Assembly: GCA_963764165.1 (NCBI GenBank)
Contig: CAVXRD010000001.1
Coordinates: forward strand, 1,568,001 to 1,632,000
Length of the DNA: 64,000 bases
Direction of reading: 5' to 3'
Source: an uncultured Verrucomicrobiae bacterium
GTDB lineage: Bacteria; Verrucomicrobiota; Verrucomicrobiia; Limisphaerales; Palsa-1400
Below, piece by piece: positions 4,575 to 64,000 of the stretch (the stretch's first letter is position 1; each line of letters opens with the position of its first letter). Made by a program: the position numbers and the translations under genes. Under the pieces are notes generated by a model. It searched no databases, was not told where the DNA came from, and saw only the letters and a program-made list of their open reading frames with translations.

Positions 4575-6077
4575 ATGAAGGAAAATAGTGCCTTGAAAAA
4601 ACGTGTCGGCATATGGATTCGTGTTTCCACCGAAGATCAAGCCAGGGGCGAAAGCCCGCAACACCACGAGCAACGCGCCCGCGAATACGCCAAGTTCAAC
4701 GACTGGACAGTGGTTGAAGTGTATGACTTGGCCGGGGTGTCAGGCAAAACCGTCATGGAAAATGCCGAAGCCAAGCGGATGATGTCCGACCTTAAGCGCG
4801 GCCACATCAACGGCCTGATCTTTTCCAAGCTCGCCCGCCTTGCCCGAAACACAAAGGAGCTTTTGGAATTTGCCGAGTTGTTCCGTCAGCACAGCGTGGA
4901 CATGATCTCCTTGCAGGAGAAAATCGACACATCATCCCCCGCCGGACGCCTTTTCTACACGATGATCGCGGCAATGGCGCAATGGGAGCGAGAGGAGATC
5001 GCCGACCGTGTTAAAGCCTCGATTAAAATCAGGGCAAAACTTGGCAAGAGTTTGGGCGGTGCCGCGCCTTTCGGCTATCAGTGGGAGAACAACAAATTGG
5101 CCGTGCATCCCGTCGAATCTCCCGTCCGCAAGCTCATGTATGAGCTTTTTGCCAAAAACAAGCGCATGAAGGGCGTTGCGCGGCTTCTTAATGAATCGGG
5201 CTACCGCACGAGGAACGGCAGCAAATTCAGCGATACGACAGTTTTGAGGCTGCTTCAAGACACCACGGCAAAGGGGTTGTATCGCTCAAATCACACCTAC
5301 CGTGACGGCTCCGGCAAACTCCTTCCCAAACCAGAAGACGAATGGGTTTACAGCCCCGTCACTGCGATTGTGTCCGAATCCTTGTGGAAAGAGTGCAACG
5401 ATGCTTTGGGAGCGCGAAAGGCGCAGAAGCCGCTTGGACGGAAGCCTGTGCATTTGTTCGCCGGATTGCTGCATTGCGGTTGCGGCCAAAAGATGTATGT
5501 CTTTTCCCGCTCCCCCAAATACGTCTGCCCGGAGTGCAGGAACAAAATAACGGTCGAAGACATGGAGGGGGTTTTTCACGACGAATTACATGATTTCTTC
5601 GTGTCCCAGGACAAAATTAAAGGGCATCTGGCGAACGCAAACCAAAACCTTGCCGACAAAAAAGTCAGGCTTGAGGCGCATACCCGGCAGATTGAAAAAG
5701 TTCGCACCGAAATGCGCAAAACATACCAACTCTATCAAGAAGACCAGATTACCCCGGAGGGCTTTGGGAAAGTGTATCGCCCGCTTGAAGATCAGGAACG
5801 CGCCCTGACAGCCGAACTTCCAAAGCTCCAAGCCGAAGTTGACGCAATCGAAATGCACCAGATTTCCGCCGAAGAAGTGCTCGCGGAGGCGACTGGACTA
5901 CACCGGAAGTGGCCTCATTTCGGCCAAGAGGAAAAGCGGAGAATCATCGAAAGTATCGTCGAGAAGGTCACTCTTTCGGGAGACACAATTGATATAACAT
6001 GGTCATACTTAACCTCTTCTGAAGAACTCACAAAAAGGCAACGCAACGTGTCGGGTTCATCGCGGCCACCAGCATGA
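4575..6077 (+). CDS. large serine recombinase (integrase)
   Basis: [10 protein letters not shown] catalytic Ser motif, SG and LARLAR resolvase motifs, APFGY recombinase domain, CGCG...C..C zinc ribbon, coiled coil. Confidence 0.95.
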
Positions 6078-7104
6078 ATTCGGCGGGAAACGTCATCGTG
6101 CCTGCGGCTCGCGAAATGGTGACGCGGCCTTCTTCAATCGGCTGGCGCATGGTTTCCAAAACGCTGCGTTTGAATTCCGGCAATTCGTCCAGGAACAGCA
6201 CGCCATGATGCGCGAGCGAAATTTCGCCCGGCGTGGGATTGATGTTGCCACCCAGCAGGCCCGCGTCGCTGGCCGTGTGATGCGGCGTGCGAAATGGCCG
6301 GCGCGTGACCAGCGCCTGCTTCGGTTTGAGCAGCCCGACGATGCTGTGAATCTTCGTCGTCTCCAGCGCTTCCTCCAGCGTCAACGGCGGCAAGATTGTG
6401 GTGAGCCGTTTGGCCAGCATGGATTTGCCGGTGCCCGGCGGCCCGATCAAAAGAACGTTATGTCCGCCCGCCGCCGCGATCTCCAGCGCGCGCTTGACGG
6501 ACTCCTGGCCCTTGACTTCCGCCATGTCAAAATCGTCCTCGAACGATTGGCCGAAGATCTTCTCCAAATCAACTTTGGCGGGCTCAATTTTAATTTCCCC
6601 TTCCAAAAATCCTACCGCCTCGCGCAAATTTTCAACGGGAATAACCTCCAGTCCTTCAACCACCGCCGCCTCCGCCGCATTGTCCACTCCAACGATGAGG
6701 CCCTTCAACTTCTGCGCCCGGGCCTCCCATGCGATTGACAGAACGCCTTTGACCGGTCGCACTTGGCCTGTTAGCGCCAATTCACCAACCATCGCATAGT
6801 GATCCAGCTCCGACGACATGAGTTGATCGCTCGCCGCGAGCATTCCGATCGCAATGGGCAAATCAAAACTCGGCCCTTCTTTTCTGACGTCGGCGGGCGC
6901 GAGATTAATAGTCGTCTTGCCCATGGGAAATTTGAACCCGGAATTGGTAAGCGCCGTGCTGACGCGATCCCGCGATTCCTTCACTGCCGCATCGGGCAGC
7001 CCGACAATCACCACCAACGTATCACCCCAGCCGGAATTCACCTCCACCTCGACGGGGAAGGCTTCAATTCCATTGACAGCGGCGGATAAAACGCGAGCCA
7101 GCAT
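6028..7104 (-). pseudogene. comM: YifB/ComM Mg-chelatase-like AAA ATPase, 5' part, interrupted by the element
   Basis: [63 protein letters not shown], then RCVAFL-stop. About 358 aa versus ~500 aa for the intact family. Confidence 0.92.
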
Positions 7105-7222
7105 GGGCGGATGTTGGGGCAATGAAGCCGTTACGGCAATGCGGTTTTTGCGGGATTTGACAGACTGCGTCAGAGCCATCGATTCCCAAACAGCGCAAAC
7201 GTGGGGACTGACGCCGACCGGA

Positions 7223-7666
7223 TTAATGTTCCCGATTTCCGAGCCGCAGTTCCAATTCTTCAATTTTGTCCTGCCATTCCTCAGGGTCATATTCGTCCCG
7301 GAGTTGCGAATCTGACTTGATGAGGGCGAGCGCAGCTTGGGCAACAGGGACAAGTTCCTCAGCGGGCGAATCCCGATGAGCCGCAATCCAAGCTGTGGCG
7401 CCTATAGACAGTTTCGCCGGAGGACGGCCGCACAAAGCGCTTACAATCTCGACCGCTGCGATGGCTCTTTGGCAGTCGCTAATGGTCAAACGATCCGGGA
7501 GCCGGCCCAGGAATTTTCCGAACCGGGTCGGTTGTTTGGTCCCGCCGTGGTCGATGACGCGTTGGAGTTCACCGCGCAGGGTTACGCCAGCCACACCCTC
7601 ATTCAGGTCGTCAACAAAATCCAACGCTGGATCGTTTTGAAAACTACCGTCTCCCCAACTACCCAT
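7223..7666 (-). CDS. DUF4259-like protein
   Basis: N-terminal [21 protein letters not shown] and C-terminal S.L...Y...W...IEEL..RL pattern. Confidence 0.75.
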
Positions 7667-7956: not shown

Positions 7957-8207
7957 GCAATGAGGTTTTTGTCGCGAAAAACCAAGGGTGCAATAGGGTG
8001 CAATAGCATGCAATGCCTCAATCACGAATTATCAAGTCGGCGAGGAAAACTGCGAAATATCAAAGAACATGCCTTGACGGCGACAGGGGAAAAATAAGCC
8101 CAAAATTCTTTTTTGTCAATTATGATTGCAGTTACACTGTTTCGTGGTATTGTCGAAAGCGTATGACAACCGTATCATCGATTGTTCAGCCGGGGCCGGA
8201 GGCGAAT
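7957..8207. repeat. dispersed divergent-promoter/boxA/10-bp-repeat module, copy A
   Basis: Blocks TGTCGCGAAAA, (AGGGTGCAAT)x3 degenerate, TCAAAGAACA, TTGTCAATT...ATTGCA.TTACAC...GTGGTAT shared with copies B-D. Confidence 0.9.
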
Positions 8208-8827
8208 ACAGCGCCGGGGGCGCCGGGGCAGGAGTGCCGCGGGCCGACGGGCCGCGCCCGCACCAGCAAGATCGCGCGCCTGCCCGCCGATATCCGGGCT
8301 GAATTGAACGAGCGGCTTCTGGAGGCGGAAGCGCCAGCCGCGATTGTGGAATGGCTCAACGGCCTGCCGGAGGTGCAGCGCACGAGGACCGCCTCAATAA
8401 AATCCTGGGCACAGGCCGCTTCGCCGCCAACTGGAACAACGACCTAAGACGATGGGAAGGTCCGGGAGCAGCCATGCGGTATGAGGAGGAGGAAGTCACG
8501 CTCCAGGTGCGGACGGAAATGAAGCGGCGCTATCCGAATGGTTTCCCGGAAGGCTACCGCCCTCCCTACGGCGACCCGCTGCCGGTTTACCCCGCGCCCG
8601 TTGACACCCCAAAGAGTGTCAATCATTCAGAGCAGAAGCCTGGCGTTCCAGCGCGCAGCGACAGCCCGCCCAACAATTCCGTTGGGAACGAGGAATGTGC
8701 ATCCGCCCCAAGGCAACGGACAGAACAGGAGCCCGCGCGATTGGATGTTGGGCGACAACCGACAAATGAACACATTATCAAGATGACGCCTGCGCATGGG
8801 GGCGCGGGTGTGACTGCAAGCGGGTAA
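8163..8827 (+). pseudogene. DUF3486/Mu gp27-like protein, internally deleted or frameshifted
   Basis: RTSKIARLPADIRAELNERLLEAEAPAAIVEWLNGLPEVQ matches the family N-terminus. Frame breaks at ~8380; a second frame continues to 8827. Confidence 0.6.
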
Positions 8828-9143: not shown

Positions 9144-9369
9144 TCAACCTATCGTAACGCCCAGAGAAGACATGACTGGATACGTGCCGTTTATTTATGC
9201 TAAATACCGCATCCTATGAATCCAAAGCATGACCTATGCCCGCTTTTATTAATTCGTATAAAAAAAATGAATGAAATTTATTAAACTACTTGACACTCAC
9301 GATCGAGATCTCTACTCTGCCCGTCATCCCACCAACGAGCAGAAATCATTTAAACGAAAGGCATGCCAA

Positions 9370-11154
9370 ATGAAGACTATCAGTGTCTATATGTGTTCCA
9401 TTCTATTCGCAAGCTGTCTGGCTGTTCAGGCGTTCGAACGTGAAGTGTGGATATCCCCGATTGGGCCGGCGGTGACAAACGCGTTTACCAGCGACACCTC
9501 TGTAACCGTCACTGGCACGGGAACAGTCGTATATCCGGAAAATGTTATTGGAACTCCAACATATCCATTTCGCTGTCCGGACGCCAGCTCGCTCAGCAAC
9601 GTCCTTCATTGGGTGCTTCCAGAGACCAATATGACAATCCACTTCATGGTCGGGACATTCGAGACGCAGGTTGGCGCCATTGTGGTCGAGCATGGATGGA
9701 GATTAGTGGGGGCCGGAATCGATAATACGATCATTCAAATGACCCCCGGCGCTGTTGTTCAGGACGGGTCCCTTTGCGTCATCGGCGCCTGGAATGGCTC
9801 CGGTGTTAATAACGCGGACAGCGTGGAGGTTGCTGACATGACGGTGGACTGCAACCTCATTAACAGTAATGTAACCGTAACATCCGGTGGTTTTCTTGGC
9901 GCGGTGGGGTTTGGCGGCAACGACACGAGGATTTCCCGCGTCAAAGTTATCAACTGGGGATCACCGAGCGGCAGCCCGGTCACCTGCTATGTCTTGAACT
10001 TGGGCACGTCCAGCACCGGCGGCCCCGTCACAAACTGCGTGATTGAAGGTTGCATCCTGACTCAACCCGCGGCGGGGGCGTCCGGTGCGGGCGTCATAGG
10101 TATTTCCGCAGGAACAGGAAATGGGCCCATATATGCCGGCGTGCTTCGAAACAATGTTGTCTACAATGTGGGCGCGGGGGGCTCGGGCCAACCGGGAGCT
10201 TTTGTCGCATACCAGCCAAGTGGTTTGACGCTGAACAACATCGCGACGGGCCTTTCAGGAAACAGCACCTCCGTCTTCGCTGCTTCCGGAGACTTCGTCG
10301 ATGCAGTCGTGGATGGAAACGTTTTTGACAACGTTGCCAACGGGATCGAGATCGATTCGGAAAGCGGGTTTTCGACGAATGTGATATTAAAGAACAACGT
10401 GATTCGGGTGAACGGTGGAAACGGTATCTGGTATTACACAGGCGGGAGCTCGAATCACTGGGCGTCCAATTTAGTGATTATGGACAACATCGTCTACCCG
10501 TCTTTAACTGCCACCTCGTGCACCCCGCTGGCCATTGGGAACTATCTGTCCGCATCTGTGATGAACAACATCTTTCAGCATGCCGGCTCCGAACCAGATG
10601 TTTATATGAACTGGTATTTTACTCCGAACCCTCAGCATTCTGTCTCTACAAGCGATAGTATTCAACTAAACACCTGGGCTGGCAATGTTAATTTTAGCGG
10701 AACACAGCTTGTTGAGACCAGCGATTGGGATTGGCAGCCCGGGGACCAGGACACCATTCAGTTCACGCCGACGAGCGCGGGCTGGTACAGGATCATGACC
10801 GGCGTATATTACGGTTCAATCGCGGCGGATATTACCATAGATTCGCCGATGTGGAACGGATATATTACCGACACCGAGTTTTGGTTCCGCATGATGGGCG
10901 GGAGCACCTCCAGCACCATTGGCGAGGTGGTTGAAAACCGGCGCGGCAGTTATCCGTTTGGGACGGCGGGGAATGTCACTGAGGTTAGAGTTGGCTGCGA
11001 TGGCTCTTACACATACCTCGACGTTTACGTGCCGTCGACCACGGGTGCTCTGCCAATCAGTGTCACGGCAAAGGGCCTTCTTCGAGGCAGGCTTGAGGTT
11101 CCCACCGGGCCAACAACAACTGCGCCTACGGTGTCGTTCACACAAAGCCTCTAA
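9370..11154 (+). CDS. secreted right-handed beta-helix (pectin-lyase-like) protein, paralogue 1
   Basis: Signal peptide MKTISVY...AVQA, GAGID.TII motif, Asn/Gly-rich NN-V/I repeats. Start chosen by alignment to paralogue 2. Confidence 0.8.
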   Translation: MKTISVYMCSILFASCLAVQAFEREVWISPIGPAVTNAFTSDTSVTVTGTGTVVYPENVIGTPTYPFRCPDASSLSNVLHWVLPETNMTIHFMVGTFETQVGAIVVEHGWRLVGAGIDNTIIQMTPGAVVQDGSLCVIGAWNGSGVNNADSVEVADMTVDCNLINSNVTVTSGGFLGAVGFGGNDTRISRVKVINWGSPSGSPVTCYVLNLGTSSTGGPVTNCVIEGCILTQPAAGASGAGVIGISAGTGNGPIYAGVLRNNVVYNVGAGGSGQPGAFVAYQPSGLTLNNIATGLSGNSTSVFAASGDFVDAVVDGNVFDNVANGIEIDSESGFSTNVILKNNVIRVNGGNGIWYYTGGSSNHWASNLVIMDNIVYPSLTATSCTPLAIGNYLSASVMNNIFQHAGSEPDVYMNWYFTPNPQHSVSTSDSIQLNTWAGNVNFSGTQLVETSDWDWQPGDQDTIQFTPTSAGWYRIMTGVYYGSIAADITIDSPMWNGYITDTEFWFRMMGGSTSSTIGEVVENRRGSYPFGTAGNVTEVRVGCDGSYTYLDVYVPSTTGALPISVTAKGLLRGRLEVPTGPTTTAPTVSFTQSL

Positions 11155-11210
11155 TATCGTCATGGACTTGGTCATTTAACGAGCAGAAATCATTAAAAAA
11201 GGAGTATTAA

Positions 11211-12986
11211 ATGAAGGCTATCAAAGTCTATGGATGTTTTTTTCTATTCGCAAGCTGTCTAGCCGCTCAGGCGCTAGAAAGAGAGGTTTGGATATCCCCG
11301 ATTGGGGCGGCTGTAACAAACGTCACTAACATCAACGTCTCTGTCAGCGTCGCCGGCACGGGAACGATCGTGTACCCGGCGAATCTTACTGGAACTGAAA
11401 CATATCCATTTCGCTGTCCGGATGCCACCTCGCTCAGCAACGTCCTTCACTGGGTGCTTCCACAGACCAATATGACAATCCACTTCATGGCCGGGACATT
11501 TGAGACGGAAGTTGGCACGATTGTTGTCCAGATCGGATGGAAACTAAGAGGAGCCGGAATCGATGATACAATCATTCAAATGACACCCGGCGCTACTGTG
11601 CCGGACGGGGCTCTTTGCGTCATCGACTGGTGGAATGGCCGCGGTGTTAATAACGCGGACCATGTGGAGGTTTCTGATTTGACGGTGGACTGCAACCTTG
11701 CTACCCTTACCGTGATCCCCGGTGGCAAGCTTGGCGCTATTCAGTTTGGAGGCAACGACATAAAGGTCTCCCGCGTCAAAGCCATCAACTGGGGCTCAGC
11801 AACCGGCGCCTCGAACGAATGCTTTGTTTTCGCCTTGAGCGCCTCCAATACTGGCGGTCCCGCCACAAACTCCGTGATTGAAGACTGCATCGTGACTCAA
11901 CCCGCGGCGGCGTCCGGTGCGGGCGTCACAGGCATTTCCGCTGGGCAAGGAAACGGGAACCAAGTCGCCAACGTGGTGCGGAACAATGTTGTCTACGGTG
12001 TGGCCTCAGGGGGCACAAATCAGCCAGGATATATTAACGCTTACGTGGCAGGTGCCATGACGATAAACAATATCGCGACGGGATTGCTGGGGCCCGGAAG
12101 CGACTGCGTCCACATTGACAGCTATAGCTTTGTCGATTCGGTCGTGAGCGGAAACATTTTTGACAACGTCACCGCGGGAATGACCTTCAATATGATCAAT
12201 TCAAATTCATCGACGAATTTGGTATTAAAGAACAACGTGATTCGTCTGAATGGTGGATCGGGCATCTGGTATTTAACAGGCTCGAATTACTGGGCGTCCA
12301 ATTTAATGATTATGGACAATATCGTTTACCCGTCTTTAACTGCCACCACGTGCAACCCGCTGTCCATTGGGAACTATATGACCGCATCGGTGATGAACAA
12401 CATTTTTCAGTACGCCGGCTCCAATGCGGATCTTATCATGAACTCTAATTTTACTCAGAACCCTCAGAATTATTACTCTACAAGTGGTGCTTTGCAACTA
12501 AACACCTGGGCCGGCAATGTTAATTTTAGCGGAACACAGCTTGTTGAGGCCAACGACTGGGATTGGCAGCCCGGGGACCAGGACACCATTCAGTTCACGC
12601 CGACGAGCGCGGGCTGGTACAGGATCATGACCGGCGTATATTACGGTTCAATCGCGGCGGATATTACCATAGATTCGCCGATGTGGAACGGATATATTAC
12701 CGACACCGAGTTTTGGTTCCGCATGATGGGCGGGAGCACCTCCAGCACCATTGGCGAGGTGGTTGAAAACCGACGCGGCAGTTATCCGTTTGGGACGGCG
12801 GGGAATGTCACTGAGGTTAGAGTTGGCTGCGATGGCTCTTACACATACCTCGACGTTTACGTGCCGTCGACCACGGGTGCTCTGCCCATCAGTGTCACGG
12901 CAAAGGGCCTTCTTCGAGGCAGGCTTCAGGTTCCCAGCGGGCCCACAACGACTGCGCCTGCGGTGTCGTTCACACAAAGCCTTTAA
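11211..12986 (+). CDS. secreted right-handed beta-helix protein, paralogue 2
   Basis: Colinear with 9370-11154; RBS AAGGAG upstream. Confidence 0.8.
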   Translation: MKAIKVYGCFFLFASCLAAQALEREVWISPIGAAVTNVTNINVSVSVAGTGTIVYPANLTGTETYPFRCPDATSLSNVLHWVLPQTNMTIHFMAGTFETEVGTIVVQIGWKLRGAGIDDTIIQMTPGATVPDGALCVIDWWNGRGVNNADHVEVSDLTVDCNLATLTVIPGGKLGAIQFGGNDIKVSRVKAINWGSATGASNECFVFALSASNTGGPATNSVIEDCIVTQPAAASGAGVTGISAGQGNGNQVANVVRNNVVYGVASGGTNQPGYINAYVAGAMTINNIATGLLGPGSDCVHIDSYSFVDSVVSGNIFDNVTAGMTFNMINSNSSTNLVLKNNVIRLNGGSGIWYLTGSNYWASNLMIMDNIVYPSLTATTCNPLSIGNYMTASVMNNIFQYAGSNADLIMNSNFTQNPQNYYSTSGALQLNTWAGNVNFSGTQLVEANDWDWQPGDQDTIQFTPTSAGWYRIMTGVYYGSIAADITIDSPMWNGYITDTEFWFRMMGGSTSSTIGEVVENRRGSYPFGTAGNVTEVRVGCDGSYTYLDVYVPSTTGALPISVTAKGLLRGRLQVPSGPTTTAPAVSFTQSL

Positions 12987-19097: not shown

Positions 19098-19379
19098 CTC
19101 TGCGCACTCATCTTTTCTGCGCGGACGTTTTTTCCCCGGAGATCCATGTCGCGAAAACCCAAGGGTGCAACAGGGTGCAATAGCGTGCAACGCCCCGATC
19201 ACGAACGGCTCCCCTCGCGCGGGGATCCGCAAAATATCAAAGAACACGCCCTGACGGCGACAACCAGGAACATAAGGCCGAAACTCCGTTTGTCAATTCC
19301 GATTGCAATTACACGCTTATGTGGTACTTCGTCGCATGACAAGCGAAACATCGATTGTTCAGGCTGGACCGGAGGCGAA
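19098..19379. repeat. dispersed divergent-promoter/boxA module, copy B
   Basis: Core 19147-19326 aligns with A, C and D. 19098-19146 also aligns with 36238-36286. ATG at 19336 gives MTSETSIVQAGPEA, homologous to MTTVSSIVQPGPEA in copy A. Confidence 0.9.
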
Positions 19380-23966: not shown

Positions 23967-24158
23967 CCGGGCATACGCATCTTAATTCCGCGGTAGGGAC
24001 GCCTCGCCGAGGCGTCCGGTTGCGCGTGAAAATGCTTTTGGCTTTGTGCGTGAATAATGCCTCACCCCGGACGCCTCGGCGAGGCGTCCCTACCAATCAA
24101 CAAGCCTGGCGCTCGTTGATTTTCAATAGATTACAAAGAATTAAGATGTGTCTGCCAG
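23967..24158. mobile_element. MITE with ~20-bp imperfect TIRs and 10-bp target duplication, containing a REP doublet
   Basis: GGCATACGCATCTTAATTC ... GAATTAAGATGTGTCTGCC; AATTCAAGAT at 23957-23966 and 24159-24168. Confidence 0.8.
23992..24094. repeat. GTAG-type REP doublet (REPIN-like)
   Basis: GGTAGGGACGCCTCGCCGAGGCGTCCGG ... CCGGACGCCTCGGCGAGGCGTCCCTACC. Confidence 0.9.
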
Positions 24159-30944: not shown

Positions 30945-31151
30945 ATACCACATAACAGTGTGATTGCAATATTAATTGATAAACATGGCTTTCGGCCTTA
31001 TAATTCTCCTGTCGCCTTCAGGGCGTGTTCTTTGACATTTTGAGGACTTCCGAGTCCCTGATTCGAGGCTTAGAAACAAACTGTGATCGGGGCGTTGCGC
31101 GCTATTGCACCCTATTGCACTCTCGGTTTTCGCGACAAAAACCTCATTGCT
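30945..31151. repeat. dispersed divergent-promoter/boxA module, copy C (inverted)
   Basis: Reverse complement of A/B/D core. Confidence 0.9.
30976..31037 (+). promoter_or_regulatory. sigma70-like promoter followed by a hairpin and boxA-like motif
   Basis: TTGATA(30976)-17 bp-TATAAT(30999); CGCC-TTCAG-GGCG hairpin; TGTTCTTTGACA at 31026-31037. Confidence 0.65.
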
Positions 31152-31228: not shown

Positions 31229-31340
31229 GTTTGTGACGGCTCTATGCGAGGGTTTGTGACGGTATTTGTGACGGACTAAGTGCTTGATTGACAACGTTGT
31301 GACGGGTGTGACGGCTTTTTAGGGGGGTATGCACATATAT
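31229..31340 (-). repeat. iteron-like CCGTCACA repeats around an IHF-consensus site
   Basis: Five TGTGACGG copies; minus-strand AATCAAGCACTTA fits WATCAANNNNTTR. Confidence 0.75.
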
Positions 31341-31410: not shown

Positions 31411-31452
31411 CCCAGTCTCAGCAAATCTCACCAAATCTCACCAAATCTCACC
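31411..31452. repeat. 10-bp tandem repeat (CCAAATCTCA) x3-4
   Basis: cccagtctca gcaaatctca ccaaatctca ccaaatctca cc. Confidence 0.9.
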
Positions 31453-36007: not shown

Positions 36008-36107
36008 TATAATCTCTAAAAACCCGCTACACCCGCTACATCGTTGAGCATCAACCAGATAACCCGCTACAAATACAGCTACAAGGCCGCTACAAACCCG
36101 CTACATT
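36008..36107 (+). repeat. iteron-like CCGCTACA repeats around an IHF-like site
   Basis: Two copies, then CATCAACCAGATA, then four copies at roughly 11-bp spacing. Confidence 0.8.
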
Positions 36108-36237: not shown

Positions 36238-36492
36238 CCCTCTGCGCACTCATCTTCTCTGCGCGAACGATTTCCTCGGGGATTCTTGTCGCAATAACCA
36301 AGGGTGCAATAGGGTGCAATTACGCGCAACGCCCCGATCCGTTTTTATTTAACCGTGTCTAAAAAATACAAGGTCGTCTGGGGCGGGAATCCGCAAAAGA
36401 TCAAAGAACACGCCCCGATGGCGAGAGGGAGAAACATAAAGCCCGAAGCCCGGATTGTCAATTAATATTGCAATTACACGCTTATGTGGTAT
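36238..36492. repeat. dispersed divergent-promoter/boxA module, copy D
   Basis: Same conserved blocks as A-C with a longer central spacer. Confidence 0.9.
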
Positions 36493-42411: not shown

Positions 42412-42627
42412 ATGGACGCAGGCCCGCAGGTGGCGCGCGGCTGTGTCGAAGACCAGCCGCAGCAACACTCAAACAACCCAAAACGAATCTGGCTGTGGCC
42501 ACCTCCGAAAGACATATCAAAACTTCGAAACTGCAACTGGCGAGCCGTGGAACTCTTTCTAACGCGCCACTTGTTTCGGAGTGGCTGCGGCTGGTCTTCG
42601 ACACAGCCGTGCTCCGCTCAAAGCGAA
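42412..42627. repeat. GGAG-type REP doublet, copy 1
   Basis: Arms 42432-42463 and 42584-42615 (GCGCGGCTGTGTCGAAGACCAGCCGCAGC and its reverse complement). Confidence 0.9.
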
Positions 42628-47298: not shown

Positions 47299-47400
47299 TA
47301 TATAATCTCCAAAAACCCGTTACACCCGTTACACAGTTGATTATCAACTAGATAAACCCCTACATCAGCCGCTACAGGTCCGCTACAAACCCGCTACATT
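47299..47400 (+). repeat. iteron-like CCG(T/C)TACA repeats around an IHF-like site
   Basis: Colinear with 36008-36107; central TATCAACTAGATA. Confidence 0.8.
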
Positions 47401-47795: not shown

Positions 47796-48145
47796 AGCAT
47801 CGCGCCGCCCCAGAACCCATCTCATAAATAGGAGCGGGGCGCGCTCGCCAGAAAACGGCCCTCTGGCGTCGTTGCTCCTCAGTCACAGCCCCATGTGGGG
47901 GATGCTCCTTCGTCGCGCCTAGCCAGAGGGCCGTTTTCTGGCGAGCCCCTCGGGTGGCCGATCTTTGGGGCGGCGGCTTCGTTGCTCGTCGGTCGAAGAT
48001 CGCTGCGGATATTCTTCCTCCTCGCGCCTTGCCGCCACCCCAAATCTCTGGCCACGCGCCCCCCACTCCTATTTATGAGATGGGTTCTAAGTTCTGGCAG
48101 TACTACGCGCAACTTCCCGAGGGGATTCAGCGGCCGGCGGATGAT
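47792..48145 (+). pseudogene. ParE/RelE-like toxin 5' remnant interrupted by a MITE
   Basis: GTG start overlapping the antitoxin stop: MKHRAAP | insertion | KFWQYYAQLPEGIQR.AD. Confidence 0.7.
47812..48088. mobile_element. 277-bp MITE with 23-bp perfect TIRs
   Basis: AGAACCCATCTCATAAATAGGAG at both ends, inverted; internal GAAAACGGCCCTCTGGC/GCCAGAGGGCCGTTTTC stem; splits a reading frame. Confidence 0.9.
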
Positions 48146-55906: not shown

Positions 55907-56123
55907 ATGGACGCAGGTGGAAAGGCGGAGCGCGGCTGTGTCGAAGACCAGCCGCAGCCGCTTCGAAACAAGCGGCGCGTTGGAATGAGTGCCATGACTC
56001 GCCACTCGAAGTTCCCAAGTTTTGATATGTTTATCAATGAGGGCTGCAACAAGATTCGCTTTTTGGTTATTTGAATGTTGCTGCGGCTGGTCTTCGACAC
56101 AGCCGCGCTCCGCTCAAAGCGAA
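55907..56123. repeat. GGAG-type REP doublet, copy 2
   Basis: Arms 55927-55958 and 56080-56111; core is the reverse complement of the copy 1 core. Confidence 0.9.
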
Positions 56124-60106: not shown

Positions 60107-60207
60107 GGTAGGGACGTCTCGCCGAAACGTCCGGGGTGAGGCGCCTGCCATGCCAAAACCCTGCAATAGCCACACGCAACCGGACGCCCCCGCGAGGCGT
60201 CTCTACC
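60107..60207. repeat. degenerate GTAG-type REP doublet
   Basis: Homologous to the reverse complement of 23992-24094, including internal GGGGTGAGGC and CGCAACCGGACGCC. Confidence 0.8.
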
Positions 60208-60317
60208 TCGCTCCGCGACCAAAATCTCGCCCACTTTCAATCACATCCCGCAGAGTTTGCGAGAGCAGCCCCTGGCGAAACAAAGAATAGAAGACGGACG
60301 GCAGCCGAGCCGCGCTG

Positions 60318-62207
60318 CTACTCGGATTCCTTGCCGGCGGGCTTGAGGATGGCGGATAGCAAGTCGGGTTTGGTTTTGTCGCGGACGAGCTGCAGGTACT
60401 TTAGGCCGTCAGCGTATTTGATGGTGATGGTGCGGTAGGTGTCGCCGTCAAGCATTAGGAAATCGATGTGGCGCTTTTCCACGCTGTCGGCGATGGCGTC
60501 CTTGAGATGATCGCTGGAGAATTTGATATTGTTGACACCGACGACGGTCATGCCGGGGGCGAAGCCGGCCTGGTCGCCGGGCATTCCGGGAGTGACACTG
60601 CTGACGCGGCCGCTGCCATCGATGCTCATTCCCAGCGTGTCGGATGCAGAGCCGCGATGGCCTTTCGGCGGCTCGGGGCTGTATTGGAGCCGGTAGCCGC
60701 AGCGTTCGAGCACGGTCAGCGGGAGATCTGTTTGGGTGACATCGACGCGATCGTGGATGAAGGTGGCCCAATCGTAGGGAGTGATGTCGTTCAGCGCTTT
60801 GATGACGTCAGCGCGCTCGTAGGGGACGATTTTATCCCGGCCGTCCGGGCCAAGGAATTTTTTGCAGAAGTCATCAAGGCTTTTATGGCCGTCGGATTCC
60901 TGACGGATAATCGCGTCGGCTTCGAGCCACAAAAGCGCGCCTTCTGGGTAGTAATCCTGCGAGCGGCGCCACGATCCCCAATTCGGACTATGGCCGCGCA
61001 ACGTGTAATTAGCGGTAGCGGTGTCCTCCAGAGGACGCCATTGCCGGCCCGCCGTGTGCATCAGCCCGTCAATGGTGCCAGTAAAGCCCGCCAGGAAATC
61101 ATTCGTCGAAACCAATCCGCTTCGCACCGAAAGCACGCCGCCGAGATATTCCGTCAAGCCTTCGTAAACCCAGAGAAGGCTTGTGCGCTCGGGTGTGTGA
61201 AAATTCGTCGTGACCATCCCGGCGGGGCGTTTGTGCTTGCCGCACCATGAATGGGTGAATTCATGCGGCAAAAGATCGGCGTCCCCCTCGAAGGCGCCTT
61301 CGTCGATCAACGAGCGCTCGCCCATTTGATCCATGCTGCTGGACAAATGCTCGACCCCTGCCCCGCCCGCCTGGTCGCTGCAGGTGCAAAGGAAATGGTA
61401 GTTGGTAAAATGCGCGCCGCCGTAAAGCCTGCTCGCTTCCTGCACCAATTTCCGAAACTTGCCGATCATTTTTTCATCCACTTGAACGGCAGCCTGCGAT
61501 TCCGAAACGACGTGCATGACAACTGTCGGGAATTTTTCGGGGTTCAAGTCAATCGTGCGCAAATATTCGCCGCAAATCAGCGGGCAATCGACAAGGTTGC
61601 GAAGCGAAGCGCTCTTAAACTCGAAGAGGCTGTTGGTTTCCCTGGCAACCGTAAGGGCCGTGCCGATGCGCCATTTGGGCGGCAGCAGCAATTTGACGCC
61701 AGCGGTGAGTTCGTCAATCGATGCGTCCTCGGGATAAAAAAGGCAGGTGTTCCAACTCATCACGCCAAGCTTTGAATTTCCGAAGCAATCGACGCCTTCG
61801 GAGTTCACCGATGGCTGGTTGCAAATGTAGTCAATACGAATAATCAGACGGTTCATTCCAGCGGGAATCGTGCATTCGATGCGGCAAGGCTCCGCGCCGT
61901 CGCGCTGCCAGGCGATGGGCTTTCCGTCCGGTGTTTCAAGGAAAAGGCCTCCGATATTCTCGACTGGCCCGCACGGCGCGTGCGTGCCGGGAATCCATTT
62001 GGGATACCACAGCGCCAGTTTTCCCGGATGCACGGGAATTTCCTCTCGCGCATGCACGAGGCGGCGCTGAATCTCGCGCGCGTCCACTTCCAATTTGATG
62101 GAATTGGTTTCCGCCGCCTGCGCGGGAAGAAGAACAAGCGCAGCGAGTGCGAACGGGGCGAGGCGTCCAAGAAACGTTTCCAATTTCAAATCCAGCGTCG
62201 CGTTCAT
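60318..62207 (-). CDS. M61 glycyl aminopeptidase family protein with PDZ domain
   Basis: YPKWIPGTH.P, G.EHLSSS, LPHEFTHSW.GK, LLWVYEGLTEY. Confidence 0.92.
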   Translation of the reverse strand: MNATLDLKLETFLGRLAPFALAALVLLPAQAAETNSIKLEVDAREIQRRLVHAREEIPVHPGKLALWYPKWIPGTHAPCGPVENIGGLFLETPDGKPIAWQRDGAEPCRIECTIPAGMNRLIIRIDYICNQPSVNSEGVDCFGNSKLGVMSWNTCLFYPEDASIDELTAGVKLLLPPKWRIGTALTVARETNSLFEFKSASLRNLVDCPLICGEYLRTIDLNPEKFPTVVMHVVSESQAAVQVDEKMIGKFRKLVQEASRLYGGAHFTNYHFLCTCSDQAGGAGVEHLSSSMDQMGERSLIDEGAFEGDADLLPHEFTHSWCGKHKRPAGMVTTNFHTPERTSLLWVYEGLTEYLGGVLSVRSGLVSTNDFLAGFTGTIDGLMHTAGRQWRPLEDTATANYTLRGHSPNWGSWRRSQDYYPEGALLWLEADAIIRQESDGHKSLDDFCKKFLGPDGRDKIVPYERADVIKALNDITPYDWATFIHDRVDVTQTDLPLTVLERCGYRLQYSPEPPKGHRGSASDTLGMSIDGSGRVSSVTPGMPGDQAGFAPGMTVVGVNNIKFSSDHLKDAIADSVEKRHIDFLMLDGDTYRTITIKYADGLKYLQLVRDKTKPDLLSAILKPAGKESE

Positions 62208-62211
62208 CGAG

Positions 62212-64000
62212 TTATTCCTTGGAAAGCACCGGCTTGAGGATGGCGGATAGCAAATCCGGTTTGGAAGGATCGCGAACAAGCGCCGGATACTTCAAACCGC
62301 CCGAGTAATCGACTGTCACCGCCCTGAACGTCTCGCCATCGAGAACCAGCAGGTCGAGTTTGTGCTTGGCCACGCTTTCGATCACCGCGTCGCGCAATCG
62401 GTTGGCCGTGAAATTTCGGTTATCGACGCCGATGACTTTCATGCCGGGGCCGAGTCCGGCTTTGTCACCCGGCGTTCCGGGAATGATGCCGTAAATGGTG
62501 CCATCGCCGCCGAATGAAATTCCCAGCGAGTCGGTGGTCGAGGGCACGCTTCCATTGTGTTCGGAGTCTTTCTGGGATTGCGAAGGAGTGTTAGTGTAAT
62601 CCAAACGGTATCCGCAGCGCTCCACCACGCTCAGCGGCATGTTCGATTGAGTCACGTCGACGCGTTCATGGATGAAGGCAGCCCAGTCGTAGGCGCTGAC
62701 GGCGTTCAAATCGCGAATCACATCGTCGCGCTTGTAGGGAACGATTTCGTCTTTGCCATCGGGGCCGAAGAATTTTTTGCAAAAATCGTCGAGACTATGC
62801 TGTCCATTTGACTGCTGGCGAATGATTGCATCGGCTTCCATCCAGAGCAGTTCGCCCTCGTCGTAGTAATCCTGCGAGCGACGCAAAACAGACCAGTTCC
62901 GGCTGCCTGCGCGCAATAAATAACTGGCGGTCGCGGTATCCTCCAGCGGACGCCAATTCCGCCCAGTCACGTGCGTGAGCGAATCAATTTCCTGCGCGAG
63001 CTGCGGGATGAAATCGTTGGTCGTTTCCAATCCGCTGCGAACCATCAGCACATGGCCCAGATACTCCGTCAGCCCTTCGTAAACCCAAAGCAGGCTTGTG
63101 CGTTCGGGCGTGTGGAAGTTCGTCGTGACCATCCCGGCGGGCCGGCGATGTTTCCCGCACCATGAATGAACAAACTCGTGCGGAATCAGCTCGGCCACCC
63201 AGCCCTTGCGCCGTTTGTCGTCAATCAAATCGCGTTCGCTTACGCCATTGAGGCTGCTGGAAAGATGCTCGAGTCCGTTCGGGCCGATGGCATCGCTCAG
63301 TGTCACCAGAAAATGAAATTCGGAAAAATGCCCCCCGCCAAACAAAGCACCCGCCTCGCTCGGCACATTATGATATTCCGTGACGACCTTTTCATCGAGT
63401 TGGAAGGCTTCCGGCGATTCGGCCACGAGATGCATGTAGGACGGCGGAAAGTTGACCGGCTTCAAATCGATGGTGCGCATATATTCCCCGCAAATCAGCG
63501 GGCAATCGACCAAATTGCGGAGCGAGAGGCGATTGAATTCAACGGTGGAACCCGTTTGCTGAACCGTTTTGAGCGCGGTGGCATAAGACCAGTTAGCCGG
63601 CAGCGTCAGGCGGACGGAGGCGAATTGTTCGTCAATCGAAACGTCCTCGGGATAATAGAAGCAGGTATACCAATTGATGACGCCGAGTTTGGAATCACCG
63701 AAACAGTCAGCGCCCTCGGAATTCACGGAAGCCTGATTGCATATATAATCCAGACGCAAAACAATGTGATCGACGTTGGTTGGAACCGTGCATTCGAGGC
63801 GGCACGGTTCAGCGCCGTCGCGCTTCCATTCAATTGCCTGGCCGCTGGGCGTTTCCAAATACAAGCCGCCGATGTTCTCGATTGGCCCGCCAGGCGAATG
63901 GGTGCCGGGCAGCCATTTCGGAAACCAGAGCGCGAGCTTTCCGGGATGCGCGGGAATCTCTTCGCGGGCGTGCAGAAGCCGGCGGGAAATCTCGCGCGCA
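62212..64000 (-). CDS. M61 peptidase paralogue, 5' end outside the window
   Basis: GLEHLSSS, IPHEFVHSWCGK; the frame stays open past 63864 (FPKWLPGTHSP) to the window edge. Confidence 0.92.
   Translation of the reverse strand, partial: AREISRRLLHAREEIPAHPGKLALWFPKWLPGTHSPGGPIENIGGLYLETPSGQAIEWKRDGAEPCRLECTVPTNVDHIVLRLDYICNQASVNSEGADCFGDSKLGVINWYTCFYYPEDVSIDEQFASVRLTLPANWSYATALKTVQQTGSTVEFNRLSLRNLVDCPLICGEYMRTIDLKPVNFPPSYMHLVAESPEAFQLDEKVVTEYHNVPSEAGALFGGGHFSEFHFLVTLSDAIGPNGLEHLSSSLNGVSERDLIDDKRRKGWVAELIPHEFVHSWCGKHRRPAGMVTTNFHTPERTSLLWVYEGLTEYLGHVLMVRSGLETTNDFIPQLAQEIDSLTHVTGRNWRPLEDTATASYLLRAGSRNWSVLRRSQDYYDEGELLWMEADAIIRQQSNGQHSLDDFCKKFFGPDGKDEIVPYKRDDVIRDLNAVSAYDWAAFIHERVDVTQSNMPLSVVERCGYRLDYTNTPSQSQKDSEHNGSVPSTTDSLGISFGGDGTIYGIIPGTPGDKAGLGPGMKVIGVDNRNFTANRLRDAVIESVAKHKLDLLVLDGETFRAVTVDYSGGLKYPALVRDPSKPDLLSAILKPVLSKE

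Follow-up and report, generated by a model that had tools for sequence, protein, structure and literature searches.

A dispersed promoter-boxA-repeat module in a family of Verrucomicrobiota: probably a new kind of phage-derived element

A short module consisting of two back-to-back predicted promoters, a hairpin followed by a boxA motif and three phased 10-bp repeats is dispersed in 50 copies over the genome (7.0 Mb, 5 contigs) of an uncultured Verrucomicrobiae bacterium, and four of these copies (A-D) lie in the window, that is, the whole stretch of 64,000 nucleotides analysed here. The module is a real repeat, widespread in one bacterial family, and probably represents a new kind of phage-derived dispersed element. 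The preliminary description of this DNA read it as the source of an RNA, and that reading was changed because an orphan small terminase (TerS) gene and origin-like arrays, absent from that description, were found. The module may be the gene-less cis core of a phage-derived, integrase-free, satellite-like element that seeds helper-phage packaging of the chromosome. We put this reading at slightly less than an even chance, and it was arrived at because TerS occurs without a large terminase (TerL), is linked to repeat arrays, arrays of the DUF3631 type are present and a Mu-like prophage is resident in the host.

Anatomy of the module and its boxA motif

The profile search of the host genome returned 50 left arms, and for every one of them a co-directional right arm follows at a distance of 24-1984 bp (50/50 pairs, with partners allowed up to 8 kb apart and the profile of the right arm refined iteratively from the paired hits), while 29 additional right-arm-like hits are members of a second family. 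The middle spacer, which accounts for this range, holds unrelated palindromic repeats and one IS. All four copies recorded earlier were recovered at their window positions (Table 1) with the promoter hexamers and spacings given for them (17 bp in A, C and D; 16 bp in B), and each of the four carries the opposite-strand TTGCA..GTGGTA, the hairpin with TGTTCTTTGA, the 10-mers and GCGACA. Counted genome-wide, the core forms a family far beyond chance, and the proposal that it spreads as a unit agrees with the complete pairing of the arms and with sister expansions in four other genomes.

The selection on the promoter boxes that was suspected from the window copies is borne out by the full set, in which column conservation is 1.00 for the -35 box, 0.99 for the -10 box (TA..T), 0.97 for boxA and 0.94 for the stem, and falls to 0.71 in the -35/-10 spacer and 0.77 in the hairpin loop. 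The forward promoter has a spacing of 17, 16 or 18 bp in 32, 10 and 8 of the 50 copies, respectively, and the distance from the -10 box to boxA is 21-22 bp in 39 of 45 scored copies. The hairpin precedes boxA in 47 of the 50 copies, and a CAC-N6-GTG inverted repeat is found within the back-facing promoter in 45.

Table 1. Features of the four window copies and their surroundings (window positions)
Feature	Position	Strand	Details
Copy A	7957..8153	-	10-mers 7988-8013; hairpin and boxA 8058-8082
Copy A, promoters			forward TTGACA-17-TATTTT 8091-8119; back-facing 8126-8153
Copy A, broken orphan TerS	8163..8827	+	residues 1-81 and 209-368 of a 369-aa protein, in two frames; middle missing
Copy B	19147..19326	-	forward promoter TTGACA-16-TATGTT 19269-19296
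Copy B, TerS first codons	19336	+	
Copy C, whole module	30945..31140	+	left arm, 37-bp-class spacer, right arm; from the profile, element 16 on contig C1
Copy C, back-facing predicted promoter	30946..30969	-	-35 TTGCAA, extended -10, internal CAC-N6-GTG
Copy C, forward predicted sigma-70 promoter	30976..31004	+	TTGATA-17-TATAAT
Copy C, short GC hairpin, then boxA	31013..31037	+	TGTTCTTTGACA
Copy C, right arm	31084..31137	+	GATCGGGGCG, three phased TTGCAC-type 10-mers, T-tract, GCGACA
Copy C, 10-mers within right arm	31095-31120	+	part of the right arm, which as a whole is a candidate TerS/pac-like site
Copy C, downstream array	31232..31319	+	phased TGTGACGG around IHF-like site; candidate origin
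Second 10-mer array, sister family 3	31417..31452	+	AAATCTCACC x3, then T-tract
Copy D	36287..36491	-	forward promoter TTGACA-17-TATGTT 36433-36461
Origin-like array behind copy D	36019..36105	-	TGTAGCGG; oriented as the module
Further origin-like array	47300..47400	-	no family-1 module

In elements 9 and 26 (C1:914099 and C2:1889542) the hairpin is interrupted, at one position, by an identical inverted-repeat element about 270 bp long, which shifts boxA by 296-297 bp. Palindromic repeat families, which also fill the module spacers, were seen in the window at 23989-24094, 42432-42617, 47812-48088, 55925-56113 and 60107-60210, and a separate palindromic repeat family, with about 40 members genome-wide (for example C2:2182482-2182630), is built of ACACAGAT-type tandem repeats of 9/10 bp in inverted pairs. 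The window also includes two tandem gene duplications (9271-12986 and 60318-63864, blocks 70-87% identical), and a tRNA/tmRNA search of it returned none.

The name boxA, given to the motif in the preliminary description, proved appropriate: TGTTCTTTGACA lies upstream of the 23S gene, in the spacer of the host's single rRNA operon, the motif starts five of the eight retrieved loci of relatives, those being CRISPR leaders, and it is present at two of their cobalamin (B12) riboswitch leaders. The sequence TG(T/C)TCTTTGA has 73 sites in the host genome, 44 of them within modules, and a count of the 10-mer gave 57 occurrences versus 15 expected. The LexA box of Verrucomicrobia is TGTTC-N4-GAACA, and this palindrome was rejected as an identity of the motif, being found at the boxA position in 0 of 50 copies. 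The host has NusB and Rho genes, and boxA probably lets transcription read through. In PMC13753749 and PMC5725501 boxA is described at rrn, CRISPR and other genes. In the family, boxA was also recorded at the 5' end of leaders of both kinds, cobalamin riboswitch and CRISPR (L044, L049, L165-L170), and the pairing of boxA with a riboswitch may be notable in itself.

The possibility that the module encodes a folded ncRNA of about 130 nt was not supported. A new family of structured non-coding RNA could account for the constant distances among promoter, 5' hairpin and boxA, and in the folds of several copies the terminal GCGACA could base-pair with a TGTCGC close to the predicted start; however, the predicted transcripts of 19 copies with a spacer of up to 63 bp gave a mean folding z of 0.08 versus shuffled sequences and no common fold, the spacer ranges over 24-1984 bp, Rfam returned no match (window at the gathering score, the four copies at E up to 1) and the 10-mer sequence differs from species to species, which leaves such a family highly improbable.

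Orphan small terminases and their repeat arrays

By its sequence family, the gene behind the back-facing promoter is a Mu-type small terminase gene (gp27/DUF3486). Four copies (25, 33, 45 and 49) have it intact, as an ORF of 304-369 aa on the opposite strand that begins 9-10 bp away from the left arm. Copies 14 (copy A of the window), 23 and 43 have a broken version and copies 3 and 32 a short one, and the first codons can be made out in 31 of the 50 modules. The element's own intact protein matches PHROG_426 (E 3.3e-7), a match found in 18 of 27 members of the TerS family, while the match to Pfam Mu gp27 (PF11985; E 3e-4) is below the Pfam cut-off, and the protein-atlas cluster is named Mu gp27 at 0.95. 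A structure search, with the predicted model of a prophage TerS relative as a stand-in for the element's protein, gave no match at E 0.001; its best viral rows were DUF3486 proteins (E 0.015), and the weak PDB rows were small terminases (E >2). As given in PMC9611059, the N-terminal HTH of TerS binds DNA and the C-terminus binds TerL.

The viral relatives of this gene are followed by a long ORF in 57 of 60 loci, and 15 of the 19 that were tested match large-terminase families. Thus terL is directly downstream in the phage relatives and absent from this place in the element's TerS copies; no large terminase was found beside the latter, both TerL matches of the genome lying away from the family-1 TerS copies. 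The dN/dS of 0.14 (residues 32-220, six copies, the pairs not being independent) indicates that the element's TerS is under purifying selection, and TerS relatives, often in several copies, are present in 24 of 41 genomes. In the trees the TerL-less chromosomal TerS appear as a group apart from phage TerS: 27 of 27 orphan rows fall on one side of a branch (SH-aLRT 99) when proteins with fewer than 100 stop-free residues are excluded, and at an exclusion limit of 120 residues the grouping holds for 35 of 35 rows by FastTree (support 0.73) and for 34 of 35 by IQ-TREE, where the AU test (p 0.80) neither rejects nor proves one clade, the chromosomal rows having been obtained in part with the orphan TerS as the query. 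The divergent layout of TerS and module was seen only in the host and one other genus, and no TerS was found near the 55 boxA modules of other genomes, over a distance of about 1-1.5 kb; both observations count against the packaging reading.

Two further loci (L059 and L060) consist of terS-terL pairs with no flanking phage genes in view and a common conserved upstream promoter motif; one of them has 10-mer repeats before terS, and both are possible intermediates between phage and orphan genes. A four-gene remnant at C2:561578-565120 (L128) comprises membrane-type, gp26-like, short terS-like and terL genes and no capsid genes, and a promoter with AAATCCAACC x3 lies about 800 bp beyond it.

Of 30 chromosomal TerS loci, 17 have a period-10 array immediately 5' of the gene or at its 3' end, versus 0 of 60 viral loci; in this comparison kin are not independent and the viral flanks span 3 kb only. 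In the controls, arrays of period 9 and 11 were found at 0 and 1 of the 30 chromosomal loci and arrays of period 10 at 32 of 1500 host genes. The host prophage has no 10-bp array and, since the 60 phage loci have none either, the arrays are not established as phage pac sites. Each of the two other orphan TerS genes of the host has its own array 3' of it, and a AAATCTCACC-type array lies directly 3' of the orphan TerS at C1:1236191-1236784. In the host's sister families (2/3), 69 left arms of another promoter type were counted, with an array behind 42 of them. The sequence of the array unit differs among families and species, its polarity to transcription being kept, and the arrays are spaced along the genome no more evenly than at random, by which even spacing is rejected and which counts against the packaging reading.

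When one array type was used as the anchor, a co-directional TerS preceded it in 11 of 64 loci labelled Verrucomicrobia (7 genomes) and in 0 of 16 loci of other taxa, and boxA preceded it in 5 of 54 loci and followed it in 0 of 60; this set covers 80 of at least 120 GTDB stretches, 25 of them from one genome, with possible overlap with the genomes used earlier. Most of these loci therefore have no boxA or TerS nearby, which counts against the packaging reading. Another array pattern matched viral DNA twice, in both cases unrelated low-complexity sequence, and was discarded.

A constitutive orphan TerS together with many false pac or origin sites might also serve as an anti-phage decoy, kept by the host because it diverts or jams the packaging of Mu-like phages, and the TerS family is in fact closest to the TerS of Verrucomicrobia-type Mu-like phages; satellites interfere at the terminase step, as stated in 10.1101/2024.04.22.590561. 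Decoys, however, should mimic the phage sites, yet the arrays are absent at the 60 phage TerS genes, and no match to the 10-mer pattern of family 1 was found in the viral contigs and genome collections searched (the host genome possibly lying outside these collections). Moreover, a single gene copy would be enough for this task, and boxA would be left unexplained. We regard the decoy as quite improbable.

The second kind of array consists of phased TGTnnC hexamers with an IHF-like centre, judged by the IHF consensus, and lies within 600 bp of 28 of the 50 modules (31 by profile), including window copies C and D. Thirty of 32 such arrays are on the right side of the module and 31 of 32 are co-oriented with it, and an array is present in 26 of the 49 long gaps that contain a module, compared with 43 of the 915 that contain none. 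The same array type occurs directly behind two intact DUF3631 genes in the host and, judged by eye, behind the DUF3631 gene in about 10 of 20 cases in relatives, and is a candidate origin of replication. From the P4/PICI layout we presume that DUF3631 is a replication initiator and the array a Rep origin. None of the 50 modules is adjoined by a DUF3631 gene, such genes lying only elsewhere, and the array is missing from 19 of the 50 modules even by profile, which again counts against packaging.

Distribution, insertion sites and a possible mechanism

The extended boxA occurs 37, 46, 21, 16 and 10 times in five genomes, with 0-1 in the control, and has at least one match in 18 of 27 genomes; boxA-array modules are expanded in four related genomes. 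At the boxA loci of relatives a sense-strand array is downstream in 44 of 55, upstream in 1 and reversed in 0, and the order of boxA followed by an array was found in 17 of 20 loci that had not been used for motif definition. BLAST of copy C against 41 relatives gave only a boxA stretch of 26-27 bp in one of them, and because nothing beyond boxA was found the module arms are considered species-specific. The pattern of a TTGCA-type promoter with boxA had 0 matches in 151 order-level genomes, in a search run without a positive control. Two DNA sequencing runs yielded no joints, only short contigs in which relatives' modules have other flanks. In two genera (L035 and L173) boxA modules were observed upstream of a scpA-like gene, at which place the host has an IS and a palindrome.

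Twelve host positions are orthologous to ones that adjoin modules in relatives, and of these 9 are empty, 3 carry a sister family and 0 carry family 1; therefore, module positions are not inherited as such. Target duplications numbered 7 versus 9.3 expected, none being supported, the module has no long terminal inverted repeats, its ends are ragged, and a recombinase lies within 5 kb of 1 of 50 modules. By the lack of target duplication, the ragged ends and the rarity of recombinases no route to new sites is evident, and spread by recombination through the flanking palindromic repeats is a guess. The single case is at window 4575-7386, where a large serine recombinase stands next to a comM/YifB-type gene at a distance of 2 kb from copy A.

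These data bear on two further explanations. The first is a patchwork at hot spots, in which a MITE-like promoter cassette was moved by some transposase, and TerS, the hexamer arrays and the palindromes, each selfish and independent of the others, accumulated in the same intergenic gaps. Such an origin would suit the spacers and flanks full of unrelated palindromic repeats and IS, the hexamer arrays and DUF3631 genes that occur alone too, and the different family at 3 of the 12 orthologous sites, but it is hard to reconcile with the fixed order and polarity of all 50 arm pairs and of the co-oriented, right-sided arrays, with the absence of excess target duplications and long terminal inverted repeats, and with a link of TerS to arrays that persists across genera; it is therefore judged rather improbable.

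The second is a domesticated regulon, with the TerS fold acting as a DNA-binding regulator or nucleoid protein, the modules as Nus-protected portable promoters kept by the host and the 10-mers as operators. Here the conservation of promoter boxes and boxA over 50 copies while spacers drift, the purifying selection on TerS and the modules upstream of scpA in two genera are favourable, and 24 of 50 modules lie between divergent genes versus a background of 25% (p 4e-4), although 6 of the 24 count a TerS gene or its pieces. Nevertheless, the downstream gene is co-directional with the module in 31 of 50 cases, which is not above background (p 0.20), 9 of the 12 orthologous positions are empty in the host and none has family 1, the arm sequences differ among species, the neighbouring genes have no evident common function, and the origin-like arrays are unexplained. 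Such a regulon is unlikely.

Under the packaging reading both promoters of the module would fire, and boxA would load Nus factors, so that an untranslated transcript could run through the repeat-filled spacer to the arrays and perhaps open them. TerS from the few intact copies would bind the 10-mers of the modules, and the bound protein would recruit the TerL of a helper Mu-like phage for headful packaging of the cassette and the neighbouring chromosome, while the hexamer array would act as an origin fired by DUF3631 in trans, amplifying the flanks in place. Packaging in place from the modules, similar to lateral transduction, would then be followed by transfer between cells. The element would keep its cis sites (promoters, boxA, 10-mers, often an origin-like array) and lose its genes, as non-autonomous elements do.

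Mu-type phages package from integrated DNA, packaging is coupled to transcription in T3/T7, and transcription activates the origin in lambda. The candidate helper is a Mu-like prophage of the host with transposase, TerL, portal and capsid genes. This prophage was located on C4 at about 316000-352000 (L133, L344, L129), with transposase A/B, its own terS-terL, portal and capsid, and a DUF3631 gene with an origin-like array lies just left of it. Satellites pair their own TerS with the TerL of the helper (10.1101/2024.04.22.590561), TerS and Rep are the kinds of trans genes that they carry (PMC9618062, 10.1101/2024.04.22.590561), and lateral transduction is packaging in place from the chromosome (PMC12946183). 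The SF6 TerS domain is reported to bind pac repeats without sequence specificity in PMC4737164, which counts against the packaging reading.

A wider form of this mechanism, which is possible at best and on the doubtful side, is that the chromosome is seeded with tens to more than 100 mini pac-plus-origin cassettes served in trans by a domesticated TerS clade and DUF3631 initiators, that any infecting Mu-like phage would thereby become a distributed, site-directed gene transfer agent, and that Nus antitermination would activate the sites.

Significance and comparison with known systems

If true, the packaging reading would place a new mode of horizontal gene transfer between those of satellites, MITEs and gene transfer agents, one without capsid genes or integrase, in which dispersed cis sites and few trans genes could mobilise large parts of the chromosome; about 40% of the host genome is at most 37 kb away from an array, counted in both directions. 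An abundant protein clade that has no name (DUF3486-like orphans) would also acquire a function open to testing, as would the DUF3631 arrays. The boxA of this bacterial group is now defined from rRNA, CRISPR and riboswitch leaders, and a repeat family uses it in dozens of copies. Under the rival explanations, too, a monophyletic TerL-less TerS tied to species-specific 10-bp arrays remains noteworthy. In a literature search with most subscription papers and supplements outside its scope, no description of the element and no such terminase tied to such arrays was found, and a term search of PMC3226654 for a description of repeat-flanked genes gave 0 occurrences.

Judged from its sequence, the module fails the defining tests for PICI, MITE, gene transfer agent and structured ncRNA, although under the packaging reading it would operate as the packaging module of a satellite does. 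With the Neisseria Correia elements, which are promoter-carrying MITEs, it shares its short, dispersed and intergenic nature, a variable middle, promoters and an IHF-like site, and it has the high copy number and the internal deletions with both ends kept that are typical of MITEs; unlike Correia elements, it has no terminal inverted repeats or target duplication, and its links are to TerS and DUF3631 and to no transposase. Helical-period repeats with IHF are features that P1 pac and lambda cosB have in common with the module. Gene transfer agents and Bartonella run-off replication are cases of domesticated phage parts that move host DNA; unlike gene transfer agents, the element has no head or tail genes of its own and its sites are many and scattered, the flanking genes of the 50 modules being unrelated host genes with no head/tail cluster (judged from sequence starts, in part annotated).

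A short hairpin followed by boxA near a promoter is shared with the rrn and CRISPR leaders of Nus antitermination (PMC13753749 and PMC5725501), but the module has no rRNA, CRISPR array or structured RNA downstream, and its motif reaches 37-46 copies per genome in the expanded species. In SPP1 pac, according to PMC4737164, direct repeats span promoters and the start of terS, which resembles the module; in contrast, the arrays described here are not in a phage genome and were found beside 0 of 60 related phage terS genes. Like PICI/SaPI and the marine VEIMEs (10.1101/2024.04.22.590561 and PMC9618062), the element has its own TerS without TerL; a probable Rep with an origin would be a further likeness, with origin-like arrays behind 28-31 of the 50 modules and DUF3631 genes only elsewhere, as would dependence on a helper. 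Unlike these satellites, it has no integrase or att beside 49 of 50 copies, its parts are split over separate mini-modules, and, compared with satellites of about one third of a phage genome, the modules are of 0.2-2 kb, present in 50 chromosomal copies and mostly gene-less. Finally, lateral and pseudo-pac generalized transduction (PMC12946183) likewise involve chromosomal start sites of packaging and maybe amplification in place, which are here predicted from sequence; however, instead of a prophage's own pac or chance look-alikes, the sites proposed here are a dedicated, selected repeat family accompanied by a non-phage TerS clade.
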